A stretch of DNA of 64,000 nucleotides from contig OZ024740.1 in NCBI GenBank assembly GCA_964016885.1, positions 192,572,001 through 192,636,000 on the forward strand, given 5' to 3'. The notes under the pieces are model-generated. The model worked only from the letters and a program-made list of their open reading frames with translations, made no database searches and was not told the DNA's origin. Positions 20,302 to 57,800 of the stretch are shown piece after piece. This DNA comes from Eledone cirrhosa (Eukaryota). Positions within the stretch are counted from its first letter, which is position 1. Each line of letters opens with the position of its first letter. Position numbers and translations under genes: made by a program.

Positions 20302-20519
20302 TAAGTTAAAAATGTACATCCGCATATGTATACTGAAATACTAGTATGCATATGAATACACACACGTATACATATGTAGATGTACCAAGTCTTTCACTGG
20401 TTACTTTACTGTGAGTATCCAGCTATTCTGTATGTAAACACACAGACAAACCGGTTTTTAGAGTCATACTGGTTTTTGAGGAAACACCTTTCCTCTATTC
20501 TCCAGAAAGCCAGACAAGG

Positions 20520-20564
20520 AATATTGAACTAGTTTCGTTGTTGTTACAACTCATCAGCAATATT
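20520..20564 (-). ncRNA. Minimal type I hammerhead ribozyme (copy 1)
   Basis: Minus strand AATATTG-CTGATGA-GTTGT(AACA)ACAAC-GAAAC-TA-GTT-CAATATT; 7-bp stem I, 5-bp stem II, palindromic AACTAGTT stem III. Confidence 0.85.
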
Positions 20565-20985
20565 TACTTATCTACCGGCCTTTCTGGAGAATCGTAAAAG
20601 CACATATCGTTATATGCTTTTTCAATGAAAATTAATAGTGGGCAGACTAATTTGCATAGAGTGTGAGTACGTACCGGTTCAACGGAGACGATAAAAACAA
20701 ATAACGAAACGAAATTAAATTTCGTTTCGTTTGTAACTCACATTTGTATGACTGACGCTTAAACAATTAAGTTAAAAATGTACATCCGCATATGTATACT
20801 GAAATACTAGTATGCATATGAATACACACACGTATACATATGTAGATGTACCAATTCGTTCACTGGTTACTTTACTGTGAGTATCCAGCTATTCTGTATG
20901 TAAACACACAGACAAACCGGTTTTTAGAGTCATACTGGTTTTTGAGGAAACACCTTTCCTCTATTCTCCAGAAAGCCAGACAAGG

Positions 20986-21030
20986 AATATTGAACTAGTT
21001 TCGTTGTTGTTACAACTCATCAGCAATATT
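20986..21030 (-). ncRNA. Minimal type I hammerhead ribozyme (copy 2)
   Basis: Identical motif to 20520-20564, offset by 466 bp. Confidence 0.85.
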
Positions 21031-21146
21031 TACCTATCTACCGGCCTTTCTGGAGAATCGTAAAAGCACATATCGTTATATGCTTTTTCTATGAAAATTA
21101 GTTTGTTTTTATATATTTGTTTTTATATATATATATATATATTTAC

Positions 21147-21340
21147 AAAGAAAAAAAGATGAAATCGAAAATGCATCTGGAGTCTTATTTTAAAAAATAT
21201 ATATATATTTAGTTGATTCTTTTACCGGTTTTTGAAAAGCAGAAGAACTGCGAAACCGGTAAAGGAACCAAATAAATATATATAAATTTAAAAAAAAATA
21301 AGACTCCAGTTGCATTTTCGATTTCATCTCTTTTTCTTTA
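21147..21340. repeat. Inverted repeat centred on a degenerate hammerhead core
   Basis: gatgaaatcgaaaatgca.ctggagtcttatttt vs aaaataagactccag.tgcattttcgatttcatc; the centre reads TTGAAAA-GCAG(AAGAA)CTGC-GAAAC-CG-GTA. Confidence 0.8.
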
Positions 21341-21659
21341 TACTTTCACTCGTGTAGGACACCTCGGTTATTTTTCATTTTGATCCTGGGTGCTAATATG
21401 AGATATGTAGGTATAATTGTGTGATCCTAAAGAATAAACAACAGCAAAGACGAGATTGATTTATGGGCTGACAAGATAACTGGTAAATGTTTGTAGACAT
21501 TGCCGTCCTATCTTGGTGGTATAGATGTAGGGAGGCTGGAAGGTGTTTATAGAAGTTTATGGTTCTGAAATAGGCTGTGTGAGAACGTGGATTTTATACG
21601 TTAAAGTTTAAGTGGTTTTCCATTAATTTTGGGGATGCTGGTTCTAATCATGGTGGTTT

Positions 21660-31544: not shown

Positions 31545-31729
31545 AGCCCGTTGGATTGGCAGTTTAGGTAGAGGATCGGACACCATGCATAGAGTTAAGG
31601 CCCTTACCATTCTGAGTTCAAATCCCACCAACGTTAACTTTGCCTTTCATCCGTACGGGGTCGATAAAATAAAGTACCAGTAATGCACTGGGTAATTGCT
31701 GGCCTTTGCCAAAAGTAGAAACAATTATT
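31545..31729 (+). mobile_element. tRNA-derived SINE with ATT tail
   Basis: A-box-like tggcagtttaggt, B box gagttcaaatccc, central gcctttcatcc..cggggtcgataaaataaagtacc (resembles the MetaSINE-type domain, from memory), 3' end ctggcct.tgccaaaagtagaaacaattatt. Confidence 0.8.
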
Positions 31730-32151: not shown

Positions 32152-32173
32152 AATACTACTACTACTAATACTG

Positions 32174-32208
<35 letters not shown>

Positions 32209-32302
32209 GATGATGTTGCTACTACTACTACTACTAATACTACTACTATTATTGTTGAAGCTAATGTTGTTACTGCTGCTACAGTTGCTGCTGTTGCTAA
32301 TA
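32152..32302. repeat. Degenerate trinucleotide repeat (ACT/AAT/GCT)n
   Basis: Direct reading; source of the poly-Leu ORF 32102-32557. Confidence 0.9.
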
Positions 32303-32600
32303 GTAACACCGTCTGACAGAAATTTGTCAGCAAAAGAGTATGAGAAACTTGCTAAATATAAAGATCTAGAATTTGAGATAAACAGAATGTGGTACCTTAA
32401 AACAAACTTTACCGGTATCGATAGCAGAGCTAGGTGTCATAAAGAAGGTGTTCAGATTTTTCTAGGAAACATATCTTGTAAATCTAGCATCTATGAAATC
32501 CAATTGAGAGTTAGAACAAGTACCACTCATAGATATCGTAAATCTTTGTCTTTGTAATATATTACAAAACACATTTTTTTCTGTTTAATTTTTAGAGCAA
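32303..32600 (+). mobile_element. Old R4/Dong-like RLE retrotransposon 3' fragment
   Basis: PSDRNLSAKEYEKLAKYKDLEFEINRMWYLKT...IYEIQ...T.H..RKSLSL*, homologous to 54075-54400. Confidence 0.75.
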
Positions 32601-32918
32601 ATATAGTCAATAATTCATACTATTCAAATATCATTAATGCAAAATCAATTCATATATATTATACATCTTAAAACTCCATTTTTATTGTTTCTGATTTTTA
32701 AATTATTTACCTCTCAACTTTTGTGATGTGACATGTTATGAGAATGTAAGAAGGAATAAAAAAAAAAACTATCAAAAACTCTCAAAAGACAACGATGCCT
32801 GACCAAGTATCTGTTCGATACTCGGTAGTCGTTGCACATAAAAGGAAATCAAAGAAAAAAAGAATAATAATGATAACAACAACGAGAAGAAGAACAACAA
32901 CAACAATAGTAAAAATAA

Positions 32919-33091
32919 TTGTTTCTATATTTGGCACAAGGCCAGCAATTACCCAGTACATTACTGGTACTTTATTTTATCGACCCGGTAAGGATGAAAG
33001 TTAAAGTTAACCTCGGCAGGATTTGAACTTAGAATGGCAAGGGCCGTAACTCTATACGTCAAAGCATGGCGTCCGACCCTCAACCGATACT
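32919..33091 (-). mobile_element. tRNA-derived SINE with ATT tail
   Basis: Reverse complement of the 31545-31729 family; flanked by degenerate AAT/AAC repeats. Confidence 0.8.
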
Positions 33092-33193
33092 AATAAAAAT
33101 AATGGTTACTCATATGGATTTTAATGGTTGTATGGTGGACCAGGTTGAAAGGACTGAAGACAGACACTTTTCACTTAATAATAATAATAATAA

Positions 33194-33381
33194 TTGTTTG
33201 TACGTAAGGCACAAGGCCAGCAATTGACCAGTGCATTACTGGTACTTTATTTTATCGACCCCGTAAGGATGAAAGGCAAAGTCAACCTCGGCGGGATTTG
33301 AACTCAGATCGTAAAGGGACGTAACTATGCTGGAAAGCATGGCATCCGCCCCTCTACCGATACTGCCAATCCACCGCCCTT
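33194..33381 (-). mobile_element. Full-length tRNA-derived SINE between two (AAT)n tracts
   Basis: Minus strand ggcggtggattggcagtatcggtaga...gagttcaaatcccgcc...gcctttcatccttacggggtcgataaaataaagtacc...ggccttgtgcc..caaaca(att)n. Confidence 0.88.
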
Positions 33382-33650
33382 AATAATAATAATAATGCTG
33401 TCTTTATTAACCACAAAGGTTTACATAAAGTAGACATTAAGGACAGTACAGGACAATACAGGACGGTACAAATGGGCATTTCTGCGTATTAAAAATAAAA
33501 ACAAAAAAAACAGAGGATGTAATAAAAGGTCAATGAAAAATTCCCCCAATAGGGGCGAGACTTCCGCGGGCCATCGTGGAGAAAGCCCATTAAATAAAAC
33601 CAAGGCGTCCCTGATCACCAAGGCAAATGTCCTCTCCCAGTTTTCCATCT

Positions 33651-36366
33651 TCAATTTACAAACACATACTCAGAGTAGGCCCATTCACTCGGGCCATACT
33701 CTCTCACCCATCTTTCAACAAAATGCTGGGATGAGAGTACTTCCCTCTCTACACTGATTTTCCTTTTTAAATGAAAATGGAAAAAGTTAATCAGGGCATC
33801 ACCGAAAAGGTAAGTGCTCGTCTTCATCCCTTTCAGACGCGTCCACCATACTATCTCTTTCGCCATGGCCACCAAACAGATAAAAACTGTCTGCCCTTTC
33901 CGGCTAAAGGAGGAGGGCAGGGCAATCCTCACGATGGACTCAACTGGCAGTGGATCCATTCTACACGCGACAGCAGGTGTTCGACATAAACCCACAAGTC
34001 AGCAATGCTCGGAACTGTACGAGTGCATGCAGGACGGTTTCGTCCCTCTGCGCTCTTCTCGGACATGAGCGGCTGACGGCACCACCATGCCTGTAGAGTT
34101 TATCCCGAACTGGCAAAGCTCCGCGGTAGCAATGCCAGGCCAGGGATTTCTGGAAGTTGTCCATAGGCCCCGGCCCGAAAGTCCTTCCAAAGAGATTGGC
34201 TAGTTGATATTCGTCGACGCCTAGAGTTTCCCCAAGTACGTCGTCGCTCTTCCCCTCCACTAATCCTCTATAAAACGCCAAGGTGGAGTTTCCACCGATC
34301 ACATTGCCCGATTGGTCGGGGCTGTGAACGCCTGAAGACATTCCAGTCTCGAAACACTCCCTCTCGGCCTTCGCTCGACCCAGCACTGAAGCTCCGTCAA
34401 GGAGAGGAGCTGGGGAAAGACACGTCTAGCAAACGGCGACCACACCTGATCACCGTTGAGGAACAGGTCGAGATGTCGTAGCCTTAGCGCGTACTGTTCA
34501 TCATCATCCATGGCATGCCCGGCCCTCCACGTAGCGGGTGTTGACAGCAGATGGACTGCCTCACCATCAGAGCGCATCCCTTCCACAAAAAGCGGAATAG
34601 CAAACTCTCCAGCGCAGTCAGACGAGGCTTAGGACAAGGCACGACGGTCAGGTGGTAGTAGATGACGGACGCGATGTACGCATTCGCCACCTCCGCTCGA
34701 CCTTTCAGGGATAGCTTCCTCTCCGCAGATTTCTGGGTGAAAATAGCCACCCTGCTCGTCACCTCGTCACAGTTTTTGTACGTCTGGTGTCCGGACCGAA
34801 CCATACCCCTAGCAATTTAAGCGGTCCGTCCGTCCAGCGCCCGACGACGCTGTTGGACGGCATGGACCTGCCTCTCCATTGATATTTCCTGGTTGATCAT
34901 TGCTCCTGTCACCGCTTCGTATTCTCTTAGTGTAGTGCCGATCACCTCGATGTGTTTGGCGTTCGACACCACTACGGTGACATCGTCCGCATATGCTGAC
35001 ACGGATCTTCAACATCCTGTTGCCAGTTGCAGTAGACGTCCGCCAAGAGCCCTCCGAACAAGTCTGGCATCCGTACGTAGAGTTCATAGGGCAGACCTTT
35101 GAAACGAGGCGATTTACCCCTTGTGCAGCCAGTCATTGCCTCTCGTACTTCAGCTGCTGTTATCGGCTTTTCGCAACACTCCGACTCAGTGTCCGGGATC
35201 GAGTAACATGCGCCCATCGTGGTCCACCTAAGGCCGGATCGTGGCTTTGAGGCTACGCCGCGCCTCCGCCACTCGGGCAGATTGAACGGCTTTCGTCTCC
35301 TCGTGTCTGAGAGCACGCACACTAGCTCTGACAACGCAGCATTCGTGCTTTGCAATGAAGAATTGGTCAAGGGCCAATTTCGCCGCAAGTACGTCGGTCG
35401 CGATGCCTTTGCTAAGCGCCTCTTCTAATTGTCTAACTAGTTCTCCCTCTGCTCTATTTTTCTCTATTGCTAAAGCCTTACTAAACCTAATGGACCCTAT
35501 TATAATTGCTCTTTTCAGAGCAAACCACCACTTGTTGTTGACGATGGCCCCTGTCAACGCCCGCTTAACTAGTTCGCTAATCCGGTCTCTGTAGGCCTTG
35601 CGCGCTGGTAAGAACGCGTTTAGCTTCCAGTAGCCGGGTCCTCGTCTATGAAGCCTATCTAAGTCAAGCACACGGATCACGAATGTGTGGTCCGTGTAGC
35701 TGACTGTCTTGAATTGTGGATAGCCTATGCTAGACCTATCTATTTCCCTACAAAATACTCTATCTAGATACGATCTGGTGGCCCTATGCGATTTGTCCAA
35801 GTCTACATTGGTACATACGGGAAATCCAATCGGTACCTGTCAGACAGTTCAAAACGCCTGAGCAGGTTGGTGAGACTCTTGCACCCTCCTCCCCTATCCA
35901 CTAATCCCACAAAATCCCAGCGTGCATCTAAGATCCCGTTCCAGTCGCCCACTAACACTAAAGAGCGGGACGTTCCAAGAATGGTCTCCAGACGCCGGGA
36001 GAAATCAGGCCGCCCTGCTCCTGTCGGGGCATAAACGGCCACTAACCTGAAAGCTTGCCCGTCGCTGCTGGTCACGTCCAGCACCACCAACTTACATTCT
36101 GGGTCCAGGAAGATGGCCCGTAAGACAAGATCCAAACCTCTCCGAAAAAGCACAGCAACTCCTCCCTCCGATCCCGGACGGCTGGGAGATGCGTACACAT
36201 CGTAACCGCCGAAGATCGGTGCGAAGGCCCGTGCTTCGGAGATTCTGATCTCGCTGATGGCCACTACATCTATGTTTAGTGACCTGAGGTCGTTGAGCAG
36301 GTGGCCCTGCTTCCATAACGACCCCAAGCCACGCGCGTTTATGTTGCCTATTCTGAGTGAGGTCAT
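33651..36366 (-). pseudogene. LINE ORF2 (APE endonuclease, RT, zinc-binding C-terminus), frameshifted
   Basis: MTSLRIGNINARGL..VAISE, VAVYAP, LVGDWN, SYLDRVF, DHTFV, GPGYWKLN, GKSP..GLPYELY, SAYADD, CPR...ETVLHAL. The sequence jumps from CNWQQD to SVSAYADD, so the central RT is missing. Confidence 0.9.
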
Positions 36367-36402
36367 GTTGAAATGGAGTGGAAAAGATGGGAAAGACCAC
36401 TT

Positions 36403-38397
36403 ACCTTACTTCTCGTAGAGGAAGGACGGCTTTTCCATCCTTTTCACTGCTTGTGGCCTCCTCAGGAAGGATGTCCTTATAAATCCTCCTGGAGAGTGCT
36501 TGTCGGAAGTCTCCGATGTCTTTGGGGAATTTTTGTTTTAGTGTCATGTACGTTTTCTGTGTGATGCGAGTGATTTGTATGTGTGGAGGTGGTGTGAATT
36601 TTGGGGTTGTTGTGTAGTCTTTTTCTGTGATGCTGGTGTTGTGTTTGATGTAGTGTAATCATTGGTTGTTCAAATTTAAAGCTGTGTAGTGTGTATCGTT
36701 TTGGTTGTTTTGTTTTGTTTGCGTTTGTTGTGGGTTTGTTTCTGTTTCGCATTTTGGTGACTTTTGTGGTGTAGGTAATGGTGGTGTTGGGGTTAATGAT
36801 GGTGATGGTGTTGGTGTTTGGGGTGATGGGGTTGGTGATGCTGGTGTGGATGGTGGCATATCTGTCCTAACTGTTTTGTTTGGTAATTTATTTGTTTCCC
36901 TCTGTATTTTGTTTTTGGAGGGGAAGGAAGAGAATTTTTCTTTTTTGGTTTCTTTTTTTCTTTTTTCCTGATACCGTTTCCAACTCCTCGTCGTCACAAT
37001 CTGTCTCCAGTCGTGATAGGCCGAGGAGTGTAAAATCCTCCACAAGCGTTAGTTTTGGTTGTGGCGTGGTGGATGGTGTAGGCGCTGGTGCTAGTTCTGA
37101 AGCGTTGGCTGGTGGTGGTGTTGGTTTTGCTGGTAGTGGTGTTGGTTTTGCTGGTGGTGGTGGTTTTGGTTTTGCTACTGTTGCTGGGCTTGTTGCTGTT
37201 ATAGTTGCTTCTGTTGCTGATACAGTTGTTGCTGCCATCTCTGCTACTGGTGGTGTTGATGGTTGAGTCACTGAGGTGGGTAGGAGAGGTGGCCTCAACC
37301 TTTTAGCCTGAGGGAAGAAAGCCCTTAGGTGGGTTCCTTCACCACAAACGACACACCTAAGCCTTCTGCCCTCGACAATTACGGTTCGGTGGCTGCCGTC
37401 AGTGAGCTCTATTACCTCTGGGATCTCCTCAATGCTTTTTTGGTCCGCTTGGATCAGGAGCTCCATCCCAGATCCGGACCAGTTCTCCTGCTTTTCTTTT
37501 GCTATTTCTATTATCTTTGTGTTGGCTTCGATGCCGGCGAGGACGGCCGCTATTAGCCAGGGAATTTCGATCGCCGGTGGAACGTGGGTCACCCTGATCT
37601 TTAAGAGTCTCTGGCCACAATAGCTTGGGACGAGTGTGAAGTCGTCACTTCTTAATGGGGCCATGAAGTGTTCTCTAGCCTCCTCTGATGTTTCAAAGAA
37701 CACGTCCACGGTTCCATACTTCTGTCCAGGTCTGATGTGGGTTTTTCTTGCCCACACATGTACCAAAGCTTTTGGGATTTGGGACTCGGATGCCCGTTCC
37801 ACTCGGCGCGATTTTACATTAATTGTTCGATACGACACGGTGCATAGGCGCCCATGCTCCATTTTATTAGGTGGGGGTGAGGCTGACCCTGTACCCATCT
37901 TTCTTTACCATTTTTTTGGCATTTTCTAATTCTTCCTGAGTTACCGTAAATGCTTCGCACTGTTTTGCTACTCTGGCAAAACTCAGGGTGGTTTTTTAAT
38001 GTCATTGTTGCTGTTGTTGTATCGTTATTTTTGTTATTATTAAATTTAGTTTCAGTTGTGGTGGTGGTGACGTCAGTGGTGTTCGGTGTGGATGAGTCCA
38101 TTTTGGTTGAAATTATTTCGACATTACGAGTTGATTTATTTTTTCCTTTTGTTTCTGTTGTCGCGGTGGTGGTGGGGTGGTGGTTGTCGCGGTGGTGGTG
38201 GTGGTGGCGGCTTTAACACCTACAGTCATTGGTAATGGCGGGAAATGAAAGTCTGTCTGAGACAAATTTAAAATATTGCCACTGCTTAAATTCTTTGTGT
38301 TGGCAAACGTAGTAATATTTACAATGGTGGTGTCGGTGTGAGGTGTTAGTTTGTGAGGAAAGCTCTCAGCTGCTTGGTGCAGAGGTGAATTAACCAT
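36403..38397 (-). pseudogene. LINE ORF1 (gag-like, zinc knuckle, Pro/Thr-rich tail), frameshifted
   Basis: ORF 36888-37898 contains VIVEGRRLRCVVCGEGTHLRAF (degenerate CCHC). The N-terminal extension in ORFs 38113-38397 and 37814-38101 is shared with copy 2. Confidence 0.8.
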
Positions 38398-38604
38398 TTT
38401 TTTCAAAGAAATGTTTTGATAATCATAAAAGTTTAAATTTTGGGCATAAGGCCCCAATCTTTTTGGGTGTCCTTTTCGGAAAACAATGTATGTGCGCTTA
38501 TAAACTGTTAACAATAAAATTTTCGATAAATGGCAATTTTTAACAAACGGAAATAACAAACCTTTGCGGAGCTCACGATGATACGATTTACTACGTAGGT
38601 CGCC

Positions 38605-38637
<33 letters not shown>

Positions 38638-38639
<2 letters not shown>

Positions 38640-41600
38640 TTTCATTTATTAGCCACAAGGGCCGACATGTAGGGGACAATACAAAGAGAGGGACAGTGGT
38701 GGTTTATAATAAGTTCGAGTAAATGTGCACAATGGCAAGACTAATTTAACAATGAAGATATAAAAATATAAAATACACTATGCATAAATATAACAAAGTA
38801 AATTCCCCTATAGGCGTGGACGACCCAGGGGTGACTCAGGTACCCCACCAATCCTGAACCCCCCTGCGCTTCTAGGGCACCCAGGGAGAGCACCCCTCTC
38901 CTCAAGTTAGCTAGCCTATAGGCGCATGGTCAAAGTAGGCCCAATCACACGGGCCATTCTCGCCACATTCATCCACCTTTTAGGAAATGTACTGGAGGGA
39001 AGCAATTCTCTCTCTACCCTCACCCTCCTTTCCAGGTGACTCTTGAAGAAGTTGTTGAGGGATTGGCCGAAAAGAAAAGTGTCTGTCTACAATCCTTTTA
39101 ATCTGGTCCACCATATTTCCTCTTTCGCAACGGCCACCAGACAGAGGAAAATTGCCTGCTCTTTCCTGACCTAAGGAAGGCGGCGGGTCGATCTTCACTA
39201 TGGACTCGGCCGATAGCCGGATCCGTTACACACGCCCTAGAAGCTATAACACCACAAGAAGGTAAGGCACGGACATTGGACAAGTGCGTGCAGAACGGTT
39301 TCGTCGCTCTGTGCTCATCTTGGGCAGGTCCGTCTGACAGTACTGCCGTGCCTGTAGAGTTTATCCTTAACGGCAGTGACCCCCGGTAGCACTGCCGAGC
39401 GAGGGATTTCTGGAAATGTTCCATCGTCCCCGGCTCGAAAGTCCTCCGGTACAGACTGGTCAGTTCGACTTCGTCAAGGTCCAAAGCTTCTCCGAGTGTG
39501 TCATCGCACTTGCCCACCACTAATCCTCTATAGATCTCGAGAGTAGAAGTTCCACTGATCGCATTGCCCGCTTGGTAGAGGGCAGTGAGTGCCTGGCAAC
39601 ATTCCAGGTGCCAGTCACCCAGTCTCGGTCTCTTCTTGACCCAGGACTGCAGCTCAGTCAAAGAAACGAGCTGCGGAAAGCCCGTCTGTTAAACGGCGAC
39701 CACACCTGTTCACTGTTTAGGCAGAATATCTGGAGATGTCGCAGTCTCAGCGCATGTCTGCGCATCATTAGCCACGGCAGCCCAGCCATCCGCGTAGAGG
39801 GTGCTGGCAGCAGAGGGACCGCGTCACCAATGGAACTTGTACTTTCCACAAGAATTTGAAGTGGAGGCGTTCCAACTTGACGAGGCGCAGCCGGGGGCAA
39901 GGCACGACGGTCAAGCGGTAATAGATGACGGACGCGATGTACGCATTCGCCACCTCCGCGCGACCTTTCAGTAATAGCTTCCTCCCAGGCCATTTTTGGG
40001 TGAGATTGGCTACTCTGCTCGTTACCTCGTCCCAATTCTTTTCCACCTGGAGGTCTGGTCCAAACCAAAACCCGAGGAACTTTGCCGGTTGGTCCGCCCA
40101 GCGCTCCACGACACTGTTGGACGGCATAGGCTTGCCTCTCCAGGTTCCTATCTGCAAGCCCACCGACTTTTCCTGGTTAAGTTTGGCTCCTGTCAACCTT
40201 TCATATTCCTTCAATAAGGAGCCGACCACCTCAATTTCTGAGGTGTCCGACACCATAACGGTGATGTCGTCCGCATAAGCCGAGACCGCCTTTCCACATC
40301 CCGGTTCGTGTTCGATGCCCTGCAACAGATCCAGCTTCCGCAGTACAGGCTAGAGAATCAATACGTACAGAAGGGAAGGTAGAGGGCACCCTTGACGGAC
40401 GGATCTGGAGAGCCGAAATGGTTCCGAGAGGTGGTCATTAACCTTAACCACCGAGCGTGTGCCGTTGTGCATTGCAGCGATCCAGCTTCTGAAGACAGGG
40501 CCGAAGTCAGCTGCTTTGAGGGCAAACTCCAGATACCGATGCTCGACCCTATCGAATGTTTTCGATTGGTCTAAATTGATCAGTGCCCCACCGAAGCCAG
40601 GTTTACACCCTACCCTCACTATGATGTATCGAATGAAGTGGAGTTGTAGTGTATAGACCAGGATGGGATTACACAGGTTTGCGCCTCCTCAACCAAATCC
40701 TCGACGACAAGCGTTAATCTCTTTGCAAACCCCTTGGCCAAAATCTTAAACTATGTGTTGAGCAGAGTTATGGGCCTGAAGTTGTCTAATGTATCCCTCT
40801 TGTTCTCGTCTTTCCTTATCAGCGTCACCACTCCTCTTCTCACAGAACTGGGAATACCCCCATCCTGTTGCCAGTAGCGTAGAGTGCTTCGATGAGATCC
40901 GAGAACTAGTGTGGCTTATTTACGTAAAGCTCATAGGGCAGGTCATCCAAACCAGGTGACTTGCGCCTCATGCAGCCGCAATGGCGTCCTGAATTTCGGC
41001 TGAAGTAATCGGCCTTTCTCAGCGCTCAGTGTAGATCGTCGAGATGCCTGGCAAGCCGTCAGGGTATGGACTGAAATCCGCTACTCTCTCTGACTCGTCA
41101 CTCTCTCCGAACAACCGAGCAAAGTGCTGGCAAAAGGCCTCACACATCCGCTTGGAATCGTTTATCTAGTGTCCGTCTCGGTCCGGCAAAGACCAAATTG
41201 TGGTTTTATTACCACGTTGCGCCTCTGCCACACGGGCCCATCGAACAGCTTTGGTTCCATCGTTTCTCAGCGCACGCGCCATAGCTCTGACAATGCAACA
41301 TTCGTGTTTCGCATTGAAGAAATGATCTAATGCAATTCTCCCCGCTAGCACGCCAGTTGCAATGCCACTACAAATAGCCTCGTCTAACTTATCTACCAGT
41401 TCCGCCTCCTTTCTATTTTTCTCTAACGCTAGTTCTTTGCTGAACCCTATCGAAGTTACTCTAATCTCACTTTTGAGGGCCTCCCACCATCTGTTGTTGA
41501 CGATCCCCCTGTCAACTTTTGCTTAATTAAATGTTTGACTCGGTCCCTGTAAGATTTACGTGCCGCAAATGATATGTTCAGCTTCCAGTAACGAGCTCCT

Positions 41601-43539
41601 AACCTACGTGTTTTATCTAGGTCGACTATACAGATCGAAAATGTGTGATCTCAATAGGCGACCGTTATAAAAAGTGGGCAGCCGACACTATTTCTATATA
41701 TTTTCCTAATGAAGATCCTATCTATATACGATCTAGATGACCCTATGTGGTTGGTCCACGTCCACACTGACGCATTGGGGAAATCTAGTCGGTACCTGTC
41801 AGACAGTTGGAACCGGCTGATTATGTGCTTGAGGCTTTTGCACACTCCGCTCCTGTCAGCTACTCCCACACAATCCCAGCGTGCGTCTAAGATGCCGTTC
41901 CAGTCATCCCTAACAGTAAAAGGCGAGACGTATGCAAAAGGTTTCCAGGCGCCTAAAGAAGCCCGCTCGTCCGGATCCAGTATAGGCGTAGATGGCCAGC
42001 AGTCTGAAGGAACCACCTTCGCTATTGCTCACATCCAGTATCACCAACTTAACGTCCGAGTACAGGAAGATCGAACTTACCTCGAGATCCAGGCCTTTCC
42101 TAAACAGTAATGCTACTCCACCTCCCATTCCCGGCCTGCTAGCAGATGCGAAGATATGATAGTCGTCGAAAAGAGGGCTAGTGCGCGCATGACGAAAATC
42201 CTGGTCTCGCTGACGGCAATCACATCCATTTCTAGAGACCTGATGTCGTTGAGCACGCAACCCTCATTCCAGGGTGAGCCCAGGCCACGAACATTTAAAC
42301 CTCCTACTCTTCATATTGTCCTGTTGGCATATTAAACGAGAGAGGGAAGTTATACTTACCTCCCGGGGTTTTGTGAAGGTCGGGTGGTTCGACCTCCTTC
42401 GTTGGTTGGGTTTCTTTTGGGAACCCCTTTGAAAGTCTCGATGTGGGTTTCACGTTCGGGGTTCCCACGTCTTGAGCAAAGCTCTCTCGAATTTCTTTGT
42501 AGGTATCGAGCGACATTCGCACCAGAAACAAATCTTCTGGCACGCAAAATGTGCTCAATTCAAAGATCTCCCCCTTTGTTTGAATGTCCTCGCTTTGTGC
42601 TAAGAATGCCATCAATTTATCGTTGGCCCTTCTGACAAGCACGAAGTTTTTTAATGTTTTGTTGGTCTGGTTTTATTTGCTTTCGTTTCGGTGACTGTGG
42701 TGGTGATCATTATGGTGGTGTTGTTTCGTGTATGTCTGTATTTGTTGTAGGTGTGGTGTCTGCAATTTCAGGTGAATGTGTGTTTATTTGTTCTTATGTT
42801 GGTTTAGGATGTTGGGGTTGATGTTATTGGGGAAGTGTTTGCGTTAGTGGTGTCTGTATATTTTGTTGTGTATGTTTTTGTGTTTTATGGGGGCTTTTTT
42901 ATGTTTTTTGGCACTTTGGAGTTTTCCTTCTTCACTGCTGGAAGACAAAGTGTCTGTGGCTGGTAGTGTATCTTTGTGTGTGCATTTACGGTTTGTCTAT
43001 GTGTATAATTGAAGGGGTAGGAGGAGAGGGAAAGCTATCCTCGTTATCCTTTTGGCTTGGTTACAGTGATGGCGGTGGTCCGGCTGTTTTTGAAGTTGAT
43101 GGAGTTAACCGTGTCATTGTTGGTGTTGTTTTTGGTGGTAGTGATGCAGCTTTCCGTGCTAACAATGGCGTTGTCAACAAATGAGGTTTGCGACCCCCGC
43201 ATCTTTGAGATGAGGGCAGAAGGCTTGCAGATACCTTGCTTCCTCGCAGACGAAGCAGTGCGGGTTTCTTCCCTCAGTGATTAATTGAATTGTTGTCCTG
43301 TCCTGCAGGCGGGCAATATCCGAGATGTTGTTGATGTCCTCTGGTTTCATTTGGAGAAGAATCTCAAAATCCATTCCGGACCAGATCTCTCCCTCTGTAT
43401 GTTTGATATCTAGGAGGGTATTGTCTGTTCCATCCCCAATTATGCATCCCAGGAGCCACCATATAATTTATTTATGTTGGGATCCTATGCCCATGGAGGA
43501 CGAGTGCATAATAATGCCTTCCGTTCTGCAGGGGCTCAC
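38638..43539 (-). mobile_element. Tx1/L1-clade LINE, divergent subfamily B, 5'-truncated within ORF1
   Basis: EGRNPHCFVCEEARYLQAFCPH (ORF1); [43 protein letters not shown] (ORF2); 3' end CCCTTGTGGCTAATAAA..(ATT)n. Confidence 0.9.
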
Positions 43540-43587
43540 AATAATAATAATAATAATATTAATAATAATAATAATAATAATAATAAT

Positions 43588-44409
43588 GATTTATTTAATA
43601 ACCACAAGGGTTTACATAAAGTAGACCTTAAGAACAGTGCAGGAAAATACAGGACGGTACAAATGGGCATTTCTGCGTGTAAAAAAAACAAAAACAGAGG
43701 ATGTAACAAAAAAATAACAATGAAACAATAGCGGGGAGACTTCGGAGGGACATTTGTGGAGAAAGCCCATTAAAAGGCCACAGTGACCCTGACGACCAGG
43801 GCAAGTGCCGTCACCCAGTTGTCCACCTTTAATTTACAGACACATACTCAGAGTAGGCCCATTCACTCGGGCCATTCTTGCTTCTCATACCCATCTTTCA
43901 ACAAAATACTGGGAAGAAATTTGAAAAAGTGAATCAGGGCATCACCGAAGAGGTAAGTGCTCGTCTTCAGCCCTTTCAAACGTGTCCACCATACTATCTC
44001 TTTCGCCATGGCCAGACAGATAAAAACTGCCTGCCCTTCCCGGCTAAAGGAAGAGGGCGGGGCAATCCTCACGATGGACTCAGATGATAGCCGGATCCGT
44101 CCTACACGCGACAGCAGGTGTTCAACATAAACCCACAAGTCAGCAATTTTCGGACACTGGACGAGTGCGTGCAGGACGGGTCGTCGCCCTGCACGCATCT
44201 CGGACATGCCCGGCTGACGGCACCTCCATTACTGTAGAGTTTATCCCGAACTAGCAAGGCTCCTCGGTAGCACTGCCAGGCCAGGGATTTTTGGAAGTTG
44301 TCCATAGGTCCCGAAAGTTTTTCCGAAGAGATTGGCTAGTTGATTTTCGTCGACGCCGAGAGTTTCCCCAAGTACATCGTCGCTCTTCCCCTCCACTAAT
44401 CTTCTATAG
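43588..44409 (-). mobile_element. Tx1/L1-clade LINE subfamily A copy 3 (5'-truncated, about 0.8 kb)
   Basis: MDNFQKSLAWQCYRGAL.VRDKLY..CPRC; the 3' UTR is collinear with 33397-33700 and 54580-54850. Confidence 0.92.
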
Positions 44410-44445
<36 letters not shown>

Positions 44446-45675
44446 AATAATAATAATAATAATATGTTTACTTGGTTGCTAAGAACACTGTTTAAACATG
44501 AGTGCTTTCATTTTTAAATATCTATATAAAACACAAGTTACACCACAATCATGAGATAAGAAGGAAATGAAAGCCATCAAATATAGCGCTATGATGTCCT
44601 TAGATATGTTATAATTATTTACATTACTATATTTAAAAACAACAGGTGTAAATCTACCATTGTGATGAGCAAAACAAGAATGTGATTATGATCACAGGTC
44701 TGCTCAATTTGAGGTAACATAGAATTAGACAACAAACAACCCACTCTTAACGAAAGCGTGAGCATTGAGTAATTTGATTCACCCTTCTCCATACAAGCAA
44801 TTGTTTCTACTGATAGAGAGCAGCGAATCAACTGTAATGTTGAATATAATTAATCAAATTTTGAATCTGTTGTTGATCATATTTAAATATCATTTCAAAG
44901 GCTTTCAGTTAAACAATAAAGTTAATATGTGCATTGTTTCTGTTATACCAACAACTGGAGAATCTCCCAAACTGTCTGCATTAAAATATAATGTCTAGCC
45001 TCTCCGTCGCAACTCAAAGGATTAATTGATGAGCTGAAAGAAGTTTAATACGCTTTTGTACTTTGGTATCATCAAATAGTTTATATTCACTTGTAAAGGA
45101 ATTTACATTAATGGATTCCTTTTAATAATGCTTGATAACTTTCAAATATCCATCTGGTTGTGATACTCATCCCTTTTAATTATAACTATATTATTAGTAA
45201 TCGACGAATGTCAACATAATATATGTGCTACCTTGATATCTAATTCACTTTCAATTATAGTGACTCATCTACCAAAATTCCTAACTTCGGATACACAAAG
45301 TCTGAATTGTTTCTGCTTTATAGCACTTTCATCTCGTTTAAATATATTCTAATTAGCACCAAACAGTAATTCGAACCCGATTACAGAGGTCGTATAACAC
45401 GTTAGTTCAAAAGACGAATATATCTATTACGTGAGTTCGAAAGAGCTTCGTTTGTTCAATTAGGAGAACGTGATTTATGGTTATTGATCTTTCTTCAACC
45501 TATCTATTGGGACGAAAAATATGTTTTCACGCTTCAAATTTTATACATCATAAATAAAATTACAATTTCAACATAAATCGATTTTCCTTTCCTCCTCTTT
45601 GATAGAAACATCTAGACTAGAGATTCTAAATTTGTAATGTAATGATTTATTTCTCAGTCACCAAAGCAATATATG

Positions 45676-45706: not shown

Positions 45707-46329
45707 GAGAGGGAGAAAGAGAGGAATAGAAGCACACTTCAATTAATCAACCACCTGGTATTATGGGTACTTGTCAATAGTAGAGTGGCCACAAGATATG
45801 AAGAAATGAAAGGAAATATTCTATTCAATAAAATTTATCACAATCGTTACGTTTTATGTATTATTTTTTTCTTAAACTCACCATACAAGAAAGTATGACA
45901 TAAGTATTTTACGTGAACATTGCGTTTTTATAATCTGTATTGAAAAAATGTAATTAAATTCACAATACTATTTGTTGTTTCAAACTTTATATAGAATTTT
46001 CATTTGAAAGTGAAACTGTTATACGGAAATGAATACGGAAATGTGACCATGCAATTTGATGGCAATGTGAAAGCCCTACAGGAGGCGAACGAAAACGCAA
46101 TAAATTAAATGTTTCAATTGATATAATCTAAAAAAAAAATCATGACCTCATAGTATTTATTTTACATGAGTATAATATAAATATGACATAAGAAAATGAG
46201 TATTTGATTTATTATTGTGAAAATCTGAATCAAACAGAAGCATCAGAAAACTAACCAGATTTAGTTGACTGAATTTGTAAGGCTTAGCTTTCTGAAACGA
46301 TGAAAACTGTCAAAGAAGCACACATTCTT

Positions 46330-47064
46330 GACCTGCCAATGGCTGTTGTTCACTACATGAGCAGCTTAAAAGAGTATGACCAATGGGCCATGTGGTTCTG
46401 GAAATCCTTATTCCCCATGCATATAAAATATATTTTGTCAAAAGCCCTATCCAAAAATCTACAGAGATGAAACATTATTGAACATAAATGAATGTTCAGA
46501 GTACAGGAGGCGCAAGACAGGAACTATATTGGAAAGTGAACGACATTCTGTAGACAACAGGAATGTTGTGCCGTTTAATGCCTTTTTGCTATGGAAATAT
46601 TGCGCATATTATTGTTGAAGTTTTCTCTTCTCTAACAAGCGACACATACATACTTAAATATGTTTACAAAGAACATGATTTTGCGTCTATCGAAGTAACC
46701 AATAATACATTACCTAAAGACGATCAGTACCAACATAACCATACTGAAATAAGAAGATATCTTGGTTGCAGGCATGTGTCCCCTGTGAAGTATTGTGGCG
46801 TCTCTCTGAAGTTAAGCTTCCTGGAACATCACATACACTATACAGACTACCTTTATACCAACTGCGCAAGACATAGCCTATCTCAGACCATTGATATGCT
46901 TGAACTTGAGTCCCAAGCTGACATCAAACACACTGATATTGATTCTCGTGCTGAAAAGCAACGAGTGATTATTGATACTCTAATTGATGCCGTTCAACAT
47001 ATGAGAGACAGGGAGATGCCTGCAAATATCTGATTCCCCGTAGATGTACATGGTGGCGGTGTGT

Positions 47065-47095
<31 letters not shown>

Positions 47096-48528
47096 TAAAA
47101 CATAACTGTTCTATAAACAATATCAAGTCTGTTGCAGTGTTTGGACCGGCATAGCGTCTACACTGCTTCTGGGAGATAGAACTATCCAAATTCATCCAAA
47201 ATATTAATTCCAATAACGGTGACCAGTGTGTGTAAAGTGTCTGGCTCGTGTAACCATGCCGATTAGATACGGAACTCAGCTTCTATGATTCCTTCCTATG
47301 CAATTCATGCCATTGACAAGTGCCTTCACCATATCACTGGTGTCAATGAAGTGATTGTAAGAAAGAATTTGCTTTGGGGAGGTGACTTCAGGCCCGTGCT
47401 GCCAATATTAAAAAGGTGTACTTGTGAACCCACGTTAGAATTATGCCTTTAAAAAATAATATCAGAGTAAGAGAAGATGAGACAGAGTATACGAAGTGGC
47501 AATGGAACAACACCTCGAATTGTAGAACGAAGATGATGTTGAAGTGAGTCCTTTCTCATGTGTAAATGATTCTTTAGTGAAACAAACTTTCATTAATACA
47601 ACGCAACAAGAGAAAAGTAAGCGAGTAATTTTATCTCCCCAAAATGTTGATCGCTTATTAATCAATGAAGATGTTCGGGGACAACTACCCGGTATCAGCC
47701 ATACTTATTACAGTACTGATAGTGTGATAGCTGATGACCCTAAAGAGGATGAAAGATATTATATTGACTTTCTGAAGTCACTTACACCTTCCGGTGTAAT
47801 TAAACGCAGGAACAATAATAATGATTTTACGAAATATTTCACTCCAGAATAGAAGTAATGGACCTTTGATGGACAGGCGTGTTTTGATCCCAAGATTCTT
47901 AATGATCACAATATGCCCTTTACTTTGGAATGAGCACACTTTTCAGTAAGACTGTCGTATGTTATGACAATCAACAAGACACGGGGTCAAAAATAAGATA
48001 AAGTGGATATATATTCCTTTCTCTGCCAGTATTTAGCCATAGACAAATATATGTCGCTTGTCAACAGTATACAGACTGTCATATATAGTATTAAAAAAAG
48101 TATCAAACACTGATGAGCAAGAGAGGCAAGGTAATGAGCTATAGCAAAGAATATCGTATGTAAAGAGATATTGACATACATCTGAGCTCAGTTAAAGAAT
48201 TGCAAGTTGAATTGAAAATAATCACGTAAATATAAATACTCAGTATATGCTCTATATCGCTGTGTATATAATGGAAAGTAATTTTGATACTATATTCCGT
48301 AATAATGAATATGTAATTATATATTGATCTTGAGCTTCAAAGCAATTAAATACTAACGAATGATATGTATATCAAGTATTGTATAGATTGTTATTATACA
48401 TTTTAGTATCATTTATTGCACAAGCAACAATAAGGTTTATATGCAATAAAACTTCAAATCATATTTTCTATCTTAAATAGCTCCTATTTGATAATTTCTT
48501 TACGTGGAATTTCCAAGGGTCCCACTAG
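46330..48528 (+). mobile_element. Highly decayed Helitron (Rep and helicase remnants)
   Basis: GPCGSGNP.SPC, EYRRR, VDNRNVVP, YILKYVYK.HD.A, GGDFRPVLP, FLKSLTPSG, MTINKTRGQ; putative 3' end gtgg...cccaCTAG|T at 48528. Confidence 0.75.
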
Positions 48529-53194: not shown

Positions 53195-53569
53195 AAGATT
53201 TCTATTTCAGGTACAAAGCCAATAATTTAGAGGCATAGAGTGGGTAGTATATTTTATCGAACTCGGAAGGATAAAGTCTTAGTTGACCTTGGCGTGTGTA
53301 AACTCAGAACATAGAATGTTGTATCTCCAAACGGGAAATCATTTGTCCAACAATCCAAATATTAATAATGGTTTCTTATATAGGCACAAGGCCAGCAATT
53401 TCGGGGAGGGCAAAGTCGATTAAATCAACCCCAGTGCGTAACTGGTAATTTATTTTATCGACCCTGTATGGATAAAAAGCAAAGTTAACATTGGCGAAAT
53501 TTGAACTCAGATCATAAACACTATGCTGCAAAGCATTGCGTCCTCCCTCTACCTATACTGCAATCCACC
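53195..53569 (-). mobile_element. Two adjacent SINE copies (old 53195-53360; younger 53370-53569) in an AAT context
   Basis: ggcacaaggccagcaatt...tattttatcgaccc..ggataaaaagcaaagttaac..gaaatttgaactcag; same family as 33194-33381. Confidence 0.8.
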
Positions 53570-53590
53570 AATAATAATAATAATAATAAC

Positions 53591-53624
<34 letters not shown>

Positions 53625-53625
<1 letters not shown>

Positions 53626-54011
53626 GACAAGAATGTATCTATAAAAACATTTGAAAAATTGAGCAAGTATAAGGACCTGGAGATAGAAATTGGAAAAATG
53701 TGGAAATTGAGAACTAAAACAATACCAGTGGTTGTAGGCGCTCTGGGAATGATACCTAAGGGGTCTAACGACTACTTATCGCAAATCCCAGGAAACCCGC
53801 GTATAGGAGAAATACAAAAGATAGTTCTAATGGGAACTGCCCATATACTAAGGAAGATCCTGTCAATATAAGTACATCACAAGTCTAAACACTAAGGATG
53901 CATGTGTGAATATGTATGTTCTTTCTTGAACATGGCGGACCTTGTTGTCTCTTGAGGTCACTGGTTGTGACTTGGTGATAACTCGTATAAACATAAAGCA
54001 AGATAAATGCA
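53625..54011 (+). mobile_element. R4/Dong-like RLE retrotransposon, short 3' copy between (TAA)n tracts
   Basis: EKLSKYKDLEIEIGKMWKLRTKTIPVVVGALG...IQKIVLMGTAHILRKILSI*, then 3' UTR and (TAA)n. Confidence 0.88.
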
Positions 54012-54065
<54 letters not shown>

Positions 54066-54069
<4 letters not shown>

Positions 54070-54543
54070 ACCTAATGGATGCAAATAGACCTGATATATT
54101 ACTGAAGGACTTTAAAAAGAGGGCATGCCTGCTAATTGATATGTCCGTTCCAATAGACAAGAATGTATCTATAAAAACATTTGAAAAATTGAGCAAGTAT
54201 AAGGACCTGGAGATAGAAATTGGAAACATGTGGAAATTGAGAACTAAAACAATACCAGTGGTTGTAGGCGCTCTATGAATGATACCTAAGGGGTCTAATG
54301 ATTACTTATCGCAAATCCCAGGAAACCCGCGTATAGGAGAAATACAAAAGATAGTACTAATGGGAACTGTTCATATACTAAGGAAGATTCTGTCAATATA
54401 AGTACGTCACAAGTATAAACACCTAAAGAGGCATGTGTGAGTATGTATGTTCTTTCTTGAACATGGCGGATCTTGTTGTCTCTTGAGGCCACTGGTTGTG
54501 ACTTGGTGATAACTCGCATGAACATAAAGCAAGATAAATGCAA
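54066..54543 (+). mobile_element. R4/Dong-like RLE retrotransposon, second short 3' copy
   Basis: NRPDILLKD....CLLIDMSVP.D.NVS.K..EKLSKYKDL (PD..D..K RLE motif); nearly identical to the preceding copy but with a longer 5' extent. Confidence 0.88.
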
Positions 54544-54829
54544 CTATAATAATAATAATAATAAAATAATAATAATAATGCTTTATTTATTAACCACAAG
54601 GGTTTACACAAAGTAGACATTAAGGACAGTACGGGACAATACAGGAGTGTACAAAACGGCATTTCTGCGTGTAAAAAAACAAAAAACAGAGGATGTAATA
54701 ACAGAACAATAAAGAAATTCCCCAATAGGTGGGAGACTTCCGAGGGACATTCGTGGAGAAAGCCCATTAAAAAGCCACAGTGACCCTGACCACCAGGGCA
54801 AGTCCCCTCTCCCAATATTCCACCTTTAA

Positions 54830-57800
54830 TTTACAGACACATATTCACTCGGGCCATACTCTCTCATCCATCCTTCAACAAAATGCTGGGAAGAGAGCAC
54901 TTCCCTCTCTACCCTGATTTTCCTTTTTCAATTGAAATTTGAAAAAGTTAATCACGGCATCACCGAAGAGGTAATTGCTCGTCTTCAGCCCTTTCAGACG
55001 TGTCCACCTTACTATCTCTTTTGCCATGGCAACCAGACAGATAAAAACTGCCTGTCCTTCCAGGCTAAAGGAAGAGGGCGGGGCGATCCTCACGATGGAC
55101 TCAGCTGATAGCTGGATCCGTCCTACACGCGACAGCAGGTGTTCGACATAAAGCCAAAAGTGAGAAATTTTCGGACACTGGACGAGTGCGTGCAGGACGG
55201 TTTCGTCGCCCTCCGTGCATCTCGGACATGCGCGGCTGACGGCACCACCATGCCTGTAGAGTTTATCCCGAACTGGCAAAGCTCCTCGGTAGCACTGCCA
55301 GGCCAGAGATTTCTGGAAGTTGTCCATAGAACCGGCCCGAGAGTTCTTCCGAAGAGATTGGCTAGTTGATATTCGTCGACGCCTGGAGTATCCCCAAGTA
55401 CGTCGTCGCTCTTCCCCTCCACTAATCCTCTATAGAACGCCAAGGTGGAGTTTCCACCGATCACATTGCCCGATTGGTCGAGAGCTGTGAGCGCCTGAAG
55501 ACATTCCAGTCTCCAAGCGCTCCCTCTCGGTCTTCGCTTGACCCAGGACTGCAGCTCCGTCAAGGAGACGAGCTGGGGAAATACGCGTCTAGCAAACGGC
55601 GACCATACCTGATCACCGCCGAGGAGGAGGTGGAGATGTCGTAGCCTGAGCGCGTGTCTGCGCAACATCAGCCACTGCATTCCCAGCCCTCCACGTAGCG
55701 GGTGTTGACAGCAGATGGACAGCCTGACCATCGGAGCGCGTCCCTTCCACAAAAAGCGAAAGAGCAAACGCTCCAGCGCAGTCAGGTGAGACTTAGGAAA
55801 AGATACGACGGTCAGGCGGTAGTAGATGACGGACGCGATCTACGCGTTAGCCACCTCTGCTCGACCTTTCAGGGATAGCTTCTTCGCCCATTTCTGGGTG
55901 AAAGAAGCCACCTTGCTCGTCAACTCGTCCCAGTTTTTGTCCGTCTGGGTTCCGGACCGAACCAGACCCATAGCAATTTAACCGGTCCTTCTGTCCAGCG
56001 CCAGACGACGCTGTTGGACGGCATGGACCTGCCTCTCCAGGTGCCGAGCTGCAGGCCCACTGACCTTTCCTGGTTGATAATTGCTCCTGTCACCGCTTCG
56101 TATTCTCTTAGTGTAGTGCCGATCGCCTCGATCTGTTTGGCGTTCGACACCACTACCGTGACATCGTCCGCATATGCTTACACGGATATTCCGCATCCTA
56201 GTTCGCGCGGGACCCACCTCAACATCTCCGGTTTGTGCAGTAATGGCTCGAGAGTCAATACGTACAAGAGGGATGAGAGGGGACATCCTTGGCGGACCGA
56301 GCGCATGATGTTGAACGGTTCCGAAAGGTGACCGTTCACTCTCACCACAGAGCAGATGTCGCTGAGAATGGCAGCGATCTAGCCTCTGAAGACTTGCCAA
56401 AAGCCAGCCGCCCTCTTGACTGCTACTAGTTAACGATGGTCGACCCTATCGAAAGCTTTCGACTGATCGAAATTGATCAAGGACCCACCCGTGTCTGCGC
56501 CTCTCCCACCAGACCACCAAGCCAAGCGCCAACCCCTCTGCTAGCACCTTGTCCAAAATCTTGTAATCTGAGTTTAGCAGAGTTTTGGACCTGAAATTAT
56601 CTATGTTATCCCCCTTGTTTGGTTCCTTTCTCAGCAGCGCCACCGCTCCTCGGCTTACAGAGATGGGAATTATCCCATTATTTTGCCAGTTGCAGTAGAC
56701 GTCCGCCAAGAGGCCTCCGAACAAGTCTGGCATATGTACGTAAAGTTTATAGGGCAGACCATCGAAACGAGGCGATTTACCCCTTGTGCAGCCAGTCATT
56801 GCCTCCCGTACTGCAGCGGCTGTTATCGGCTTTTCGCAACACTCCGCCTCAGTGGCCGAGAGCCGGGGAAGTTCGTCGAGGTAGACACTAAAGTCCATCC
56901 CTCGATCCGGCCCGCCGCTTCCCGCGTGTCTGAGAGCATGCACACTAGCTCTGACAACGCAGCCTTTGTGCTTTGCATTGAAGAATTGGTCAAGGGCCAA
57001 TTTCGCCGCAAGTACGTCGGTCGCGATGCCTTTGCTAAGCGCCTCGTCTAATTTTCTAACTAGTTCTCCCTCTGCTCTATGTTTCTCTATTGTTAAAGTC
57101 TTACTAAACCTAATGGACTCTATTCTAATCGCTCTTTTCAGAGCAAAACACCACTTGATGTTGACGATGGCCGTCGTCAACGTCCGCTACTAGTTCGCTA
57201 ATCCGGTCTCTGTAAGCCTTGCGCGCTAGTAAGGACGCGTTTAGCTTCCAGTAGCCGGGTCCGCGTCTACGAAGCCTATCTAAGTGAAGCACACAGATCA
57301 CGAATTTGTGGTACGTGTAGCTGACTATCTTGAATTGTGGACAGCCTATGCTAGACCTATCTATTTCCCTACAAAATACTCTATCTAGATATGAGATCTT
57401 GATGATACTGTGCGATTTGTCCAAGTCCACATTGGCACATTCGGGAAATATAATCGGTACCTGTCAGACAGTTAAAATCACCTGTGCAGGTAGCTGAGGC
57501 TCGTGTACCCTCCTCCCCTATCCGCTAATCTCACACAGTCCCAGCGTGCATCTAAGATCCCGTTCCAGTCGCCCACTAACACTAAAGAGCGGGACGTTCC
57601 AAGAAAGGTCTACAGACGCCGGTAGAAATCAGGCCGCCCGGCTCCTGTTGGGGCATAAACGGCCACTAGCCTGAAAGCTTGCCCGTCTCCGCTGGTCACG
57701 TCCGACACCACCAACTAACCCTCTGGGTCCAGGAATATGGCCCGTATGGCGAGATCCAAACCTCTCCGAAAAAGCTCAGCAAGTCCACCTCCCGATCCAG

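Follow-up and report, generated by a model that had tools for sequence, protein, structure and literature searches.

A 64,000-nucleotide stretch of the genome of the octopod Eledone cirrhosa (GenBank assembly GCA_964016885.1, contig OZ024740.1, positions 192,572,001 to 192,636,000 of the forward strand; the window) contains two chains of retroelements, chain 1 (32154-44464) and chain 2 (53199-64000), whose members are joined by (AAT)n tracts. The best explanation, to which we assign a probability of about 0.7, is that an octopod Tx1-like family of long interspersed elements (LINEs), carrying an apurinic/apyrimidinic-type endonuclease (APE) and a reverse transcriptase (RT), uses target-primed reverse transcription to insert into (TTA)n/(AAT)n, much as fish Koshi does in (TTC)n, and stacks in chains, having converged on the TAA target known for Dong. 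An earlier note on this DNA, made from the sequence alone, had proposed (ATT)n/(AAT)n targeting on the strength of chain 1. The proposal is supported in part, namely within the window, and its strongest support is the chain 2 tract at 60162-60218, not chain 1.

In chain 2, five AAT tracts link two short interspersed elements (SINEs) and the LINEs D1, D2, A3, D3, and C. The features are listed in order, the tracts without strand.
53199-53350, minus strand: first element of chain 2, an old and diverged SINE placed head-to-tail with SINE3 (nhmmer E 3e-13)
53366-53569, minus strand: SINE3 (alignment; nhmmer)
53570-53623: (AAT)n with the head of SINE3 on one side and the truncated 5' end of D1 on the other, head-to-head
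53625-54011, plus strand: D1, 387-bp 3' fragment of a Dong/R4-like LINE with AAT tail
54012-54062: (AAT)17 linker
54063-54545, plus strand: D2, 483-bp 3' fragment, 95% identical to D1, with an RPD..D..K restriction-like motif
54546-54579: (AAT)n between the 3' ends of D2 and A3, tail-to-tail
54580-60161, minus strand: LINE-A3, full 5' end, broken; open reading frame 1 (ORF1) resembling CCHC/ZCCHC3-type proteins, ORF2 with APE, RT, and zf-RVT
60162-60218: (AAT)n with the 5' end of A3 on one side and the truncated 5' end of D3 on the other, head-to-head
60220-62686, plus strand: D3, 2.5-kb 5'-truncated LINE with RT, zinc knuckle, and restriction-like endonuclease (RLE; Pfam RVT_1 E 6e-10)
62687-62734: (AAT)16 between the 3' ends of D3 and C
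62735-64000, minus strand: LINE-C, whose 5' part runs off the window

For chain 1, the order SINE, SINE, LINE-A, LINE-B, LINE-A on the minus strand was reconfirmed with its coordinates as the earlier note had given it, and so were the four linkers. The extent assigned then (32900..44465) needs revision: the array is present, but it probably begins earlier, at an old plus-strand Dong-like fragment (D0), and it is accompanied by the second chain.
32154-32300: degenerate (TAC)n/ATT/GTT tract, 5' flank of D0 (TRF rows 32154-32248 and 32260-32299)
32315-32554, plus strand: D0, an old C-terminal (RLE) fragment, frame-broken, from a Dong/R4-like LINE (tblastn to D1)
32860-32915: degenerate AAT/AAC tract on the tail side of SINE1 (sequence; TRF AAC 32875-32906)
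32916-33091, minus strand: SINE1, tRNA-type head about 10 nt short (nhmmer E 2e-60, model 11-190; alignment)
33092-33175: 84-bp micro-insertion between SINE1 and SINE2 (blastn)
33176-33193: (TAA)6 linker (repeat scan)
33194-33380, minus strand: SINE2, complete (nhmmer; alignment)
33381-33396: (TAA)5 linker, serving as both the A1 tail and the SINE2 5' flank
33397-38604, minus strand: LINE-A1, full 5' end (Pfam Exo_endo_phos E 2e-9; frameshift-aware alignment)
38605-38637: (AAT)11 linker, serving as both the B tail and the A1 5' flank
38638-43539, minus strand: LINE-B, second subfamily, 5'-truncated inside ORF1 (Pfam RVT_1; ORF1 alignment)
43540-43587: (AAT)16 linker with one slip, tail of A2 and 5' flank of B
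43588-44409, minus strand: LINE-A2, 822-bp 3' fragment, 5'-truncated
44410-44464: (ATT)11 then (AAT)7 on the plus strand, 5' junction of A2, followed by unique DNA

The five L1/Tx1-group LINEs of the window all end 3' in C+(ATT)n, and all four visible 5' ends lie in an ATT/AAT tract. Three of the latter read ..ATT/G (the slash marks the junction) on the same strand and in the same phase, one of them being a truncation inside ORF1. This behavior is common to three subfamilies that are 74-80% alike: LINE-B is 74-76% identical to LINE-A in the compared ORF2 piece, and LINE-C is 77-80% identical to both. The claim that every LINE bears the repeat at both junctions thus stands for all visible ends, with the qualification that the repeat touching the 5' junction of A2 runs opposite to that in every other linker, and the tract of matching sense begins 33 bp further out. 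As had also been stated, none of the chain elements lies inside the body of another. For comparison, a 12-nt ATT-like 5' flank was found at 358 of 83,818 strand-aware non-element positions (0.43%), chain tracts included. The window holds 13 AAT/ATT tracts of at least four units, 10 of them inside the two chains, and masked blastn and tblastn searches of the 64-kb window revealed no further L1-group piece outside the chains. AT-richness alone was rejected as the cause, the 56 (AT)n tracts (2028 bases) being unused: none touches any of the nine visible LINE ends. The tracts at 60162-60218 and 53570-53623 each lie between two 5' ends and are therefore nobody's 3' tail; the outer (AAT)7 at 44443-44464, beyond A2, cannot be a tail either.

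The same AAT tracts are used on the opposite strand by an unrelated RLE-type clade. Orientation tracks clade, with five APE LINEs on the minus and four Dong-like LINEs on the plus strand; of the 10 chain tracts, 6 are shared with Dong-like elements. Pfam matches and direct reading of motifs identified an RT followed by a zinc knuckle and a PD-(D/E)xK nuclease in the plus-strand elements; D3 gave a weak HSDR_N_2 match, and its nearest solved RTs are R2 proteins. D3 represents a second Dong/R4-like family (35-37% amino acid identity to D1 and D2), and D0 matched D1 with 42% identity over 81 amino acids (tblastn, E 6e-13). AAT borders D1, D2, and D3 at both ends, and D0 has only degenerate repeats nearby. 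All four are 5'-truncated, and we tentatively take them to be Dong/R4 elements from their motifs, from the TAA repeats beside them, and from reports that Dong-R4 is abundant in octopus (PMC13282606, PMC8967140, PMC9115989). Segmental duplication was rejected as the origin of chain 2, since its content and order differ from those of chain 1 and the copies carry private deletions.

The shared tracts bear on whether the RNA tail, rather than the nuclease, sets the target: an AT-preferring APE would nick widely, and only nicks paired with (AUU)n would be extended. Tail and target are indeed the identical repeat, Dong-like elements could supply further nicks in the AAT strand, and orientation and 3' junctions are explained equally well; pairing of tail and primer has been described for L1 (PMC3812793; sources are cited by PubMed Central number). 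We nevertheless consider this explanation unlikely, as the same ..ATT/G phase at three 5' ends fits a defined cut, the LINE junctions of chain 1 have no adjoining Dong-like element, and target choice is described as mainly endonuclease-set (PMC4494074).

In A1, ORF1 lies at approximately 36891-37904, and ORF2 starts at 36366 and encodes APE, RT, and zf-RVT. The APE-RT-zf-RVT order of ORF2 was obtained by matching Exo_endo_phos, RVT_1, and zf-RVT (Pfam) on pieces of the window. All APE catalytic motifs of A1 are readable (NARG, SE, YAP, GDWN, YLD, and DH), and about 188 RT codons are deleted near 35019. A1 and A3 start at the same base and are therefore both full length at the 5' end; the ORF1 alignment of LINE-B begins at residue 115 of the A1 ORF1. 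In frameshift-aware alignments, nine frameshifts and two stops were counted in 669 aligned codons of A1 (against its closest relative) and nine frameshifts and eight stops in 899 codons of LINE-B. This corresponds to 1.6 (A1), 1.9 (B), and 2.1 (A2) breaks per 100 codons, and all L1/Tx1-group copies of the window are broken (0.9-2.1 frameshifts or stops per 100 aligned codons), some of the frameshifts possibly being assembly errors. In family A, a long A/C-rich low-complexity stretch lies between ORF1 and ORF2 (36400-36900 and 58030-58600).

On these sequences, LINE-A, -B, and -C are assigned to the L1 group (L1/Tx1) of non-LTR retrotransposons. The RT of LINE-B is 64% identical to an Argonauta hians protein; in an RT tree of 32 rows without named Tx1 sequences, the two grouped with P0234 (support 100/96), nested in a 13-row clade (99/98). 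For an intact relative, P0155 (RT 45% identical to that of LINE-B), human L1 ORF2p was the best match in a comparison with solved structures (E 4e-75 versus 5e-20 for R2), and 22 of 23 unnamed or generic relatives outscored human L1 (256 bits). P0155, P0177, P0200, P0006, and kin form a sister clade of intact 1145-1155-amino acid ORF2 proteins, some of their clusters having hundreds of members. The APE piece of A1 is 62% identical to an Octopus sinensis gene model, P0002 (annotated "tectonic-3-like"), which contains this piece near its N-terminus and is either mis-annotated or carries an exonized fragment. No relative among the homologue-search results was labeled "Tx1". A knuckle-like motif is visible in ORF1 on reading, and its Atlas look-alikes are clusters of CCHC and ZCCHC3-type RNA-binding proteins (0.90-0.93). 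No Pfam match above the cut-off and no significant match to P0143 were obtained for ORF1; its single-sequence structure model was poor (pLDDT 45), and a fold search with it found nothing. An ORF1 with RNA-binding domains and a CCHC knuckle is typical of Tx1, unlike vertebrate L1. A search of the A1 5' end for Rfam families, ribozymes included, was negative. Membership of the three subfamilies in the Tx1 clade is likely, judged by architecture and mollusc reports rather than by named references, because L1-Tx1 is the type reported across 35 mollusc genomes (PMC10294476) and likewise in gastropods (PMC11203168).

Copies elsewhere were followed by mapping four read sets (X1, X3, X4, and X7) to 33345-43557, with reads cut at 38597-38647 (the A1/B linker). 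Family copy number was high in X4, X7, and X3 and lower in X1, and depth fell towards the 5' ends. By source of the reads, the LINE families reach a high copy number in organism D and also occur in organisms A and C. In X3, depth over ORF1 and the 5' untranslated region was >30-fold lower than over ORF2; relatives therefore seem to keep ORF2 and to diverge in, or swap, their upstream parts. Approximately 990 X7 reads had longer AAT runs before the LINE-A 3' end, and 590 X4 contigs, with aligned parts of at most 52 nt, ran from the SINE head through (TAA)5 into further AAT. A SINE head joined to a 20-letter AAT stretch was found in 10 X4 and 6 X3 contigs. One X3 contig that extends 32 letters beyond 38596 is excluded from the counts. 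These joints suggest that many SINE copies elsewhere may have ATT at the 5' side. The LINE 3'-end pattern was absent from the viral and metagenome contigs scanned, and the SINE pattern from GTDB contigs; a profile of the ORF2 C-terminus gave 80 candidates in metagenome and 76 in GTDB contigs, none of which was confirmed.

No read or contig was shown to bridge a whole linker, which would suit an array without active targeting, formed either by random insertions that survived in a repeat-rich, low-recombination patch or by AAT-joined assembly artefacts. Octopus genomes do have hotspots of transposable elements (PMC13282606), and a passive build-up of Waldo-A/B next to microsatellites has been suggested in Drosophila. 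Such an origin is very improbable here: all nine junctions are base-precise, elements spare each other's bodies and are oriented by clade, and the copies are 74-92% alike with private deletions and are thus not collapsed duplicates.

The window contains four near-complete and two diverged copies of the SINE, the last ~25 nt of which align with the LINE ends. Common to SINE and LINE ends is a hairpin with a 4-bp stem and a CUUGU-type loop in which changes occur on both sides of the stem (AACC/GGUU in LINE-A, GGCC/GGCU in LINE-B, UGGC/GCCA in SINE1). Of 37 cells, 86.5% were paired and nine were changed on both sides; none of 500 shuffles reached this value, and sliding the stem gave 19-51% pairing. 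When folded for minimum energy, A1, A3, and B formed this hairpin and C a widened version of it; A2 and the SINEs folded differently. In SINE1 and SINE3, the terminal 35 nt matched LINE-C best at its very end, with none of 239 other windows scoring as high. With 3' hairpin and tail shared, the SINE is likely a passenger moved in trans by the LINE; stem-loops mark stringent LINE-SINE pairs (PMC3747384). The SINE was rejected as a partner of the Dong-like elements, since no copy matches the D3 3' end. ATT at the SINE 5' side is clear in two of six copies, degenerate in two, and absent in two, and SINE targeting is therefore loose. Rfam and ARAGORN searches of the SINEs found nothing. SINE3 carries an extra 25 nt before its tail (53366-53430), a copy of part of its own central domain.

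The micro-insertion beside SINE1 consists of a 12-nt degenerate AAT run, ~12 nt resembling a SINE/LINE 3' end, and an inverted 42-49-bp piece of LINE ORF2. The piece (33128-33176) matched LINE-B ORF2 with 90% identity over 42 bp (blastn, E 8e-12) and LINE-C with 84% over 49 bp, and reads VWWTRLKGLKT on the plus strand; the first 24 nt of the micro-insertion matched the SINE3 end weakly (E 0.045). We infer that 33092-33175 is a tiny truncated, inverted insertion. A 15-bp exact match to the inverted piece at 3336-3350 (E 0.004-0.013) may be due to chance or may be another scrap.

Several observations weigh against targeting by the LINE. Only two loci were available, approximately 9 kb apart, in a window chosen for the pattern, so that the figures cannot stand for the genome as a whole. 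A1 and B have 5' flanks that double as their neighbors' tails, that of A2 is inverted, and the cleanest one, that of A3, belongs to a full-length copy, the transcript of which might start within the repeat. The 24 loose-end rows listed, out of ~17,190, included no internal loose end into AAT, the A1/B linker being masked. The hairpin was drawn from the same sequences on which it was tested, which form three to four related groups, and the shuffle control therefore overstates it. The tail matches of SINE0 (31549-31727) and SINE2 to the LINE were not above background, and SINE0 and a partial SINE at 51805 lack an ATT 5' flank. Finally, the decay of A1, B, and A2 is similar and does not separate insertion times in chain 1, part of which may stem from a single template-jumping event.

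Taken further, this last point would make the repeats 3' tails only, chain 1 having arisen by template jumps in one or a few events and chain 2 around Dong-targeted tracts. Besides the similar decay, every chain 1 linker doubles as the tail of the element to its right, the elements of the array as first described lie on one strand, and the micro-insertion shows that template switches occur here. Such a course cannot give the A3 5' flank, which faces a Dong 5' end, the SINE3 5' flank, or the (AAT)7 beyond A2. It also needs RNAs of two subfamilies plus the SINE in one event and, at both loci, a random insertion into a kind of tract to which 0.43% of sites belong. We judge it improbable and retain targeting of the repeat as the preferred explanation.

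During target-primed reverse transcription the primer strand is the strand opposite to the sense of the element; the AAT strand would therefore be the primer for LINE-A, -B, and -C, and the ATT strand that for the Dong-like elements. In the proposed mechanism, ORF2 would bind the small 3' hairpin with its CUUGU loop, which lies ~15 nt ahead of the (AUU)n tail of the RNA, and its APE domain would nick the AAT strand specifically. The AUU tail would pair with the freed DNA end, and reverse transcription would proceed towards the element 5' end, often stopping early. Second-strand joining would land back in the repeat, sometimes with inversion, as may have happened at the A2 tract and with the piece at 33128-33176. 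The Dong/R4-like LINEs, with their unrelated restriction-like nuclease, would use the other strand of the same tracts, and the tRNA-type SINE, equipped with the LINE hairpin and tail, would be moved in trans with a looser target choice. As each insertion leaves the repeat on both sides, the site would stay a target. More tentatively, at somewhat less than even odds, the scheme may extend to an octopod Tx1-like lineage that includes at least Argonauta, with an (AAT)n-specific APE, opposite-strand convergence with Dong/R4, a SINE driven via the CUUGU hairpin, and self-renewing AAT sites, maintained by all three element types, as a main source of octopus AAT microsatellites.

Elsewhere in the window, an ORF for a Helitron-like replication protein was found at 12092-14021 on the minus strand (Pfam Helitron_like_N E 3e-33), and the stretch at approximately 46700-48000 (within 46300-48100) resembles, by eye, a decayed helicase piece of the Helitron kind. 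Palindromic or inverted stretches occupy 19228-19775, 19934-20151 (94%), and 21144-21342 among (TA)n tracts, together with a 341-bp direct repeat (98.5%; 20294-20634 versus 20760-21100). The repeats of the whole region (19228-21342) are products of fold-back type or resemble miniature inverted-repeat transposable elements. A dispersed repeat of ~220-500 bp is present in three copies beside long (TA)n tracts (3217-3617, 7127-7622, and 9468-9961).

Microsatellite-targeting Tx1 elements are published, as the earlier note had stated for fish: the teleost Tx1-clade LINEs Kibi and Koshi target (TC)n and (TTC)n, respectively, and crocodilian Tx1 elements (TTCC)n/(TTTC)n (PMC4494074, PMC3812793). The criterion applied there was that >20% of genomic copies are flanked by the target (PMC4494074). 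The elements of the window resemble Kibi and Koshi in being APE-RT LINEs inside a microsatellite, and their TTA unit (element strand) is one base apart from the TTC of Koshi as that unit is written in the literature. They differ from the teleost and crocodilian families in their AT-only unit, their mollusc host, and a tract shared with an RLE clade, and since the unit is TTA/AAT and not TC, TTC, TTCC, or TTTC, they are none of these families. In the literature searched no AAT/TAA-targeting Tx1 family was found, though Repbase, Dfam, or Kojima and Fujiwara 2004 may list one. Targeting of TAA is known for Dong, including in snail (PMC3812793), the described elements being Dong of Bombyx mori, DongAg, and DongBg of Biomphalaria glabrata (PMC3812793, PMC3774820). 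One source files Dong under APE elements (PMC3812793), whereas PMC3774820 and PMC4640811 place it in the RLE-bearing R4 lineage. D0-D3 resemble ordinary Dong in their RT, zinc knuckle, restriction-like nuclease, and AAT on both sides; the minus-strand LINEs are set apart by their ORF1, by an APE at the N-terminus, and by use of the opposite strand, and are therefore not Dong. If targeting holds, an AT-only target joins the short list of APE specificities, and two natural comparisons become available, one of an APE and a restriction-like nuclease reading the same three-base repeat from opposite strands and one of TTA with Koshi's TTC. The motor of an abundant octopus SINE would be named and some transposable element hotspots explained mechanistically, and caution would be needed with octopus AAT microsatellite markers and assemblies, which would sit on retroelement junctions.

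The pairing with the SINE resembles that of SINEU, which is moved by Tx1-Mar in crocodilians (PMC4494074), in that a SINE shares target sites with a Tx1 family. The SINEU link rests on shared targets, and its heads derive from small nuclear RNA, whereas the SINE of the window has a tRNA-type head and the 3' hairpin and tail of the LINE. SINE partners reported in bivalves are CR1, CR1-Zenon, L2, and Nimb, with no mention of Tx1 in the excerpts available (PMC11481361), and octopus is named for CORE-SINEs only in the available part of PMC4824008. Octopus SINE families that carry names are OR1/OR2, tRNA-CORE, tRNA-Deu, and Meta. SINEs make up 11.6% of the O. vulgaris genome, in which 13 L1-Tx1 and 5 Dong-R4 families have been recently active (PMC13282606). 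L1-Tx1, Dong-R4, and SINE families are annotated in Octopus vulgaris and O. bimaculoides (PMC13282606, PMC8967140, PMC9115989); these are the element classes found here, and target sites and SINE-LINE pairing are absent from the available portions of those texts. The mechanism itself is not new, microsatellite-targeting Tx1 and TAA-targeting Dong both being published. The array is real and the targeting probable. The tracts shared with Dong-like elements on opposite strands and the link to the SINE heighten its interest, and what the window adds to the known behavior is a new target unit and a new host.

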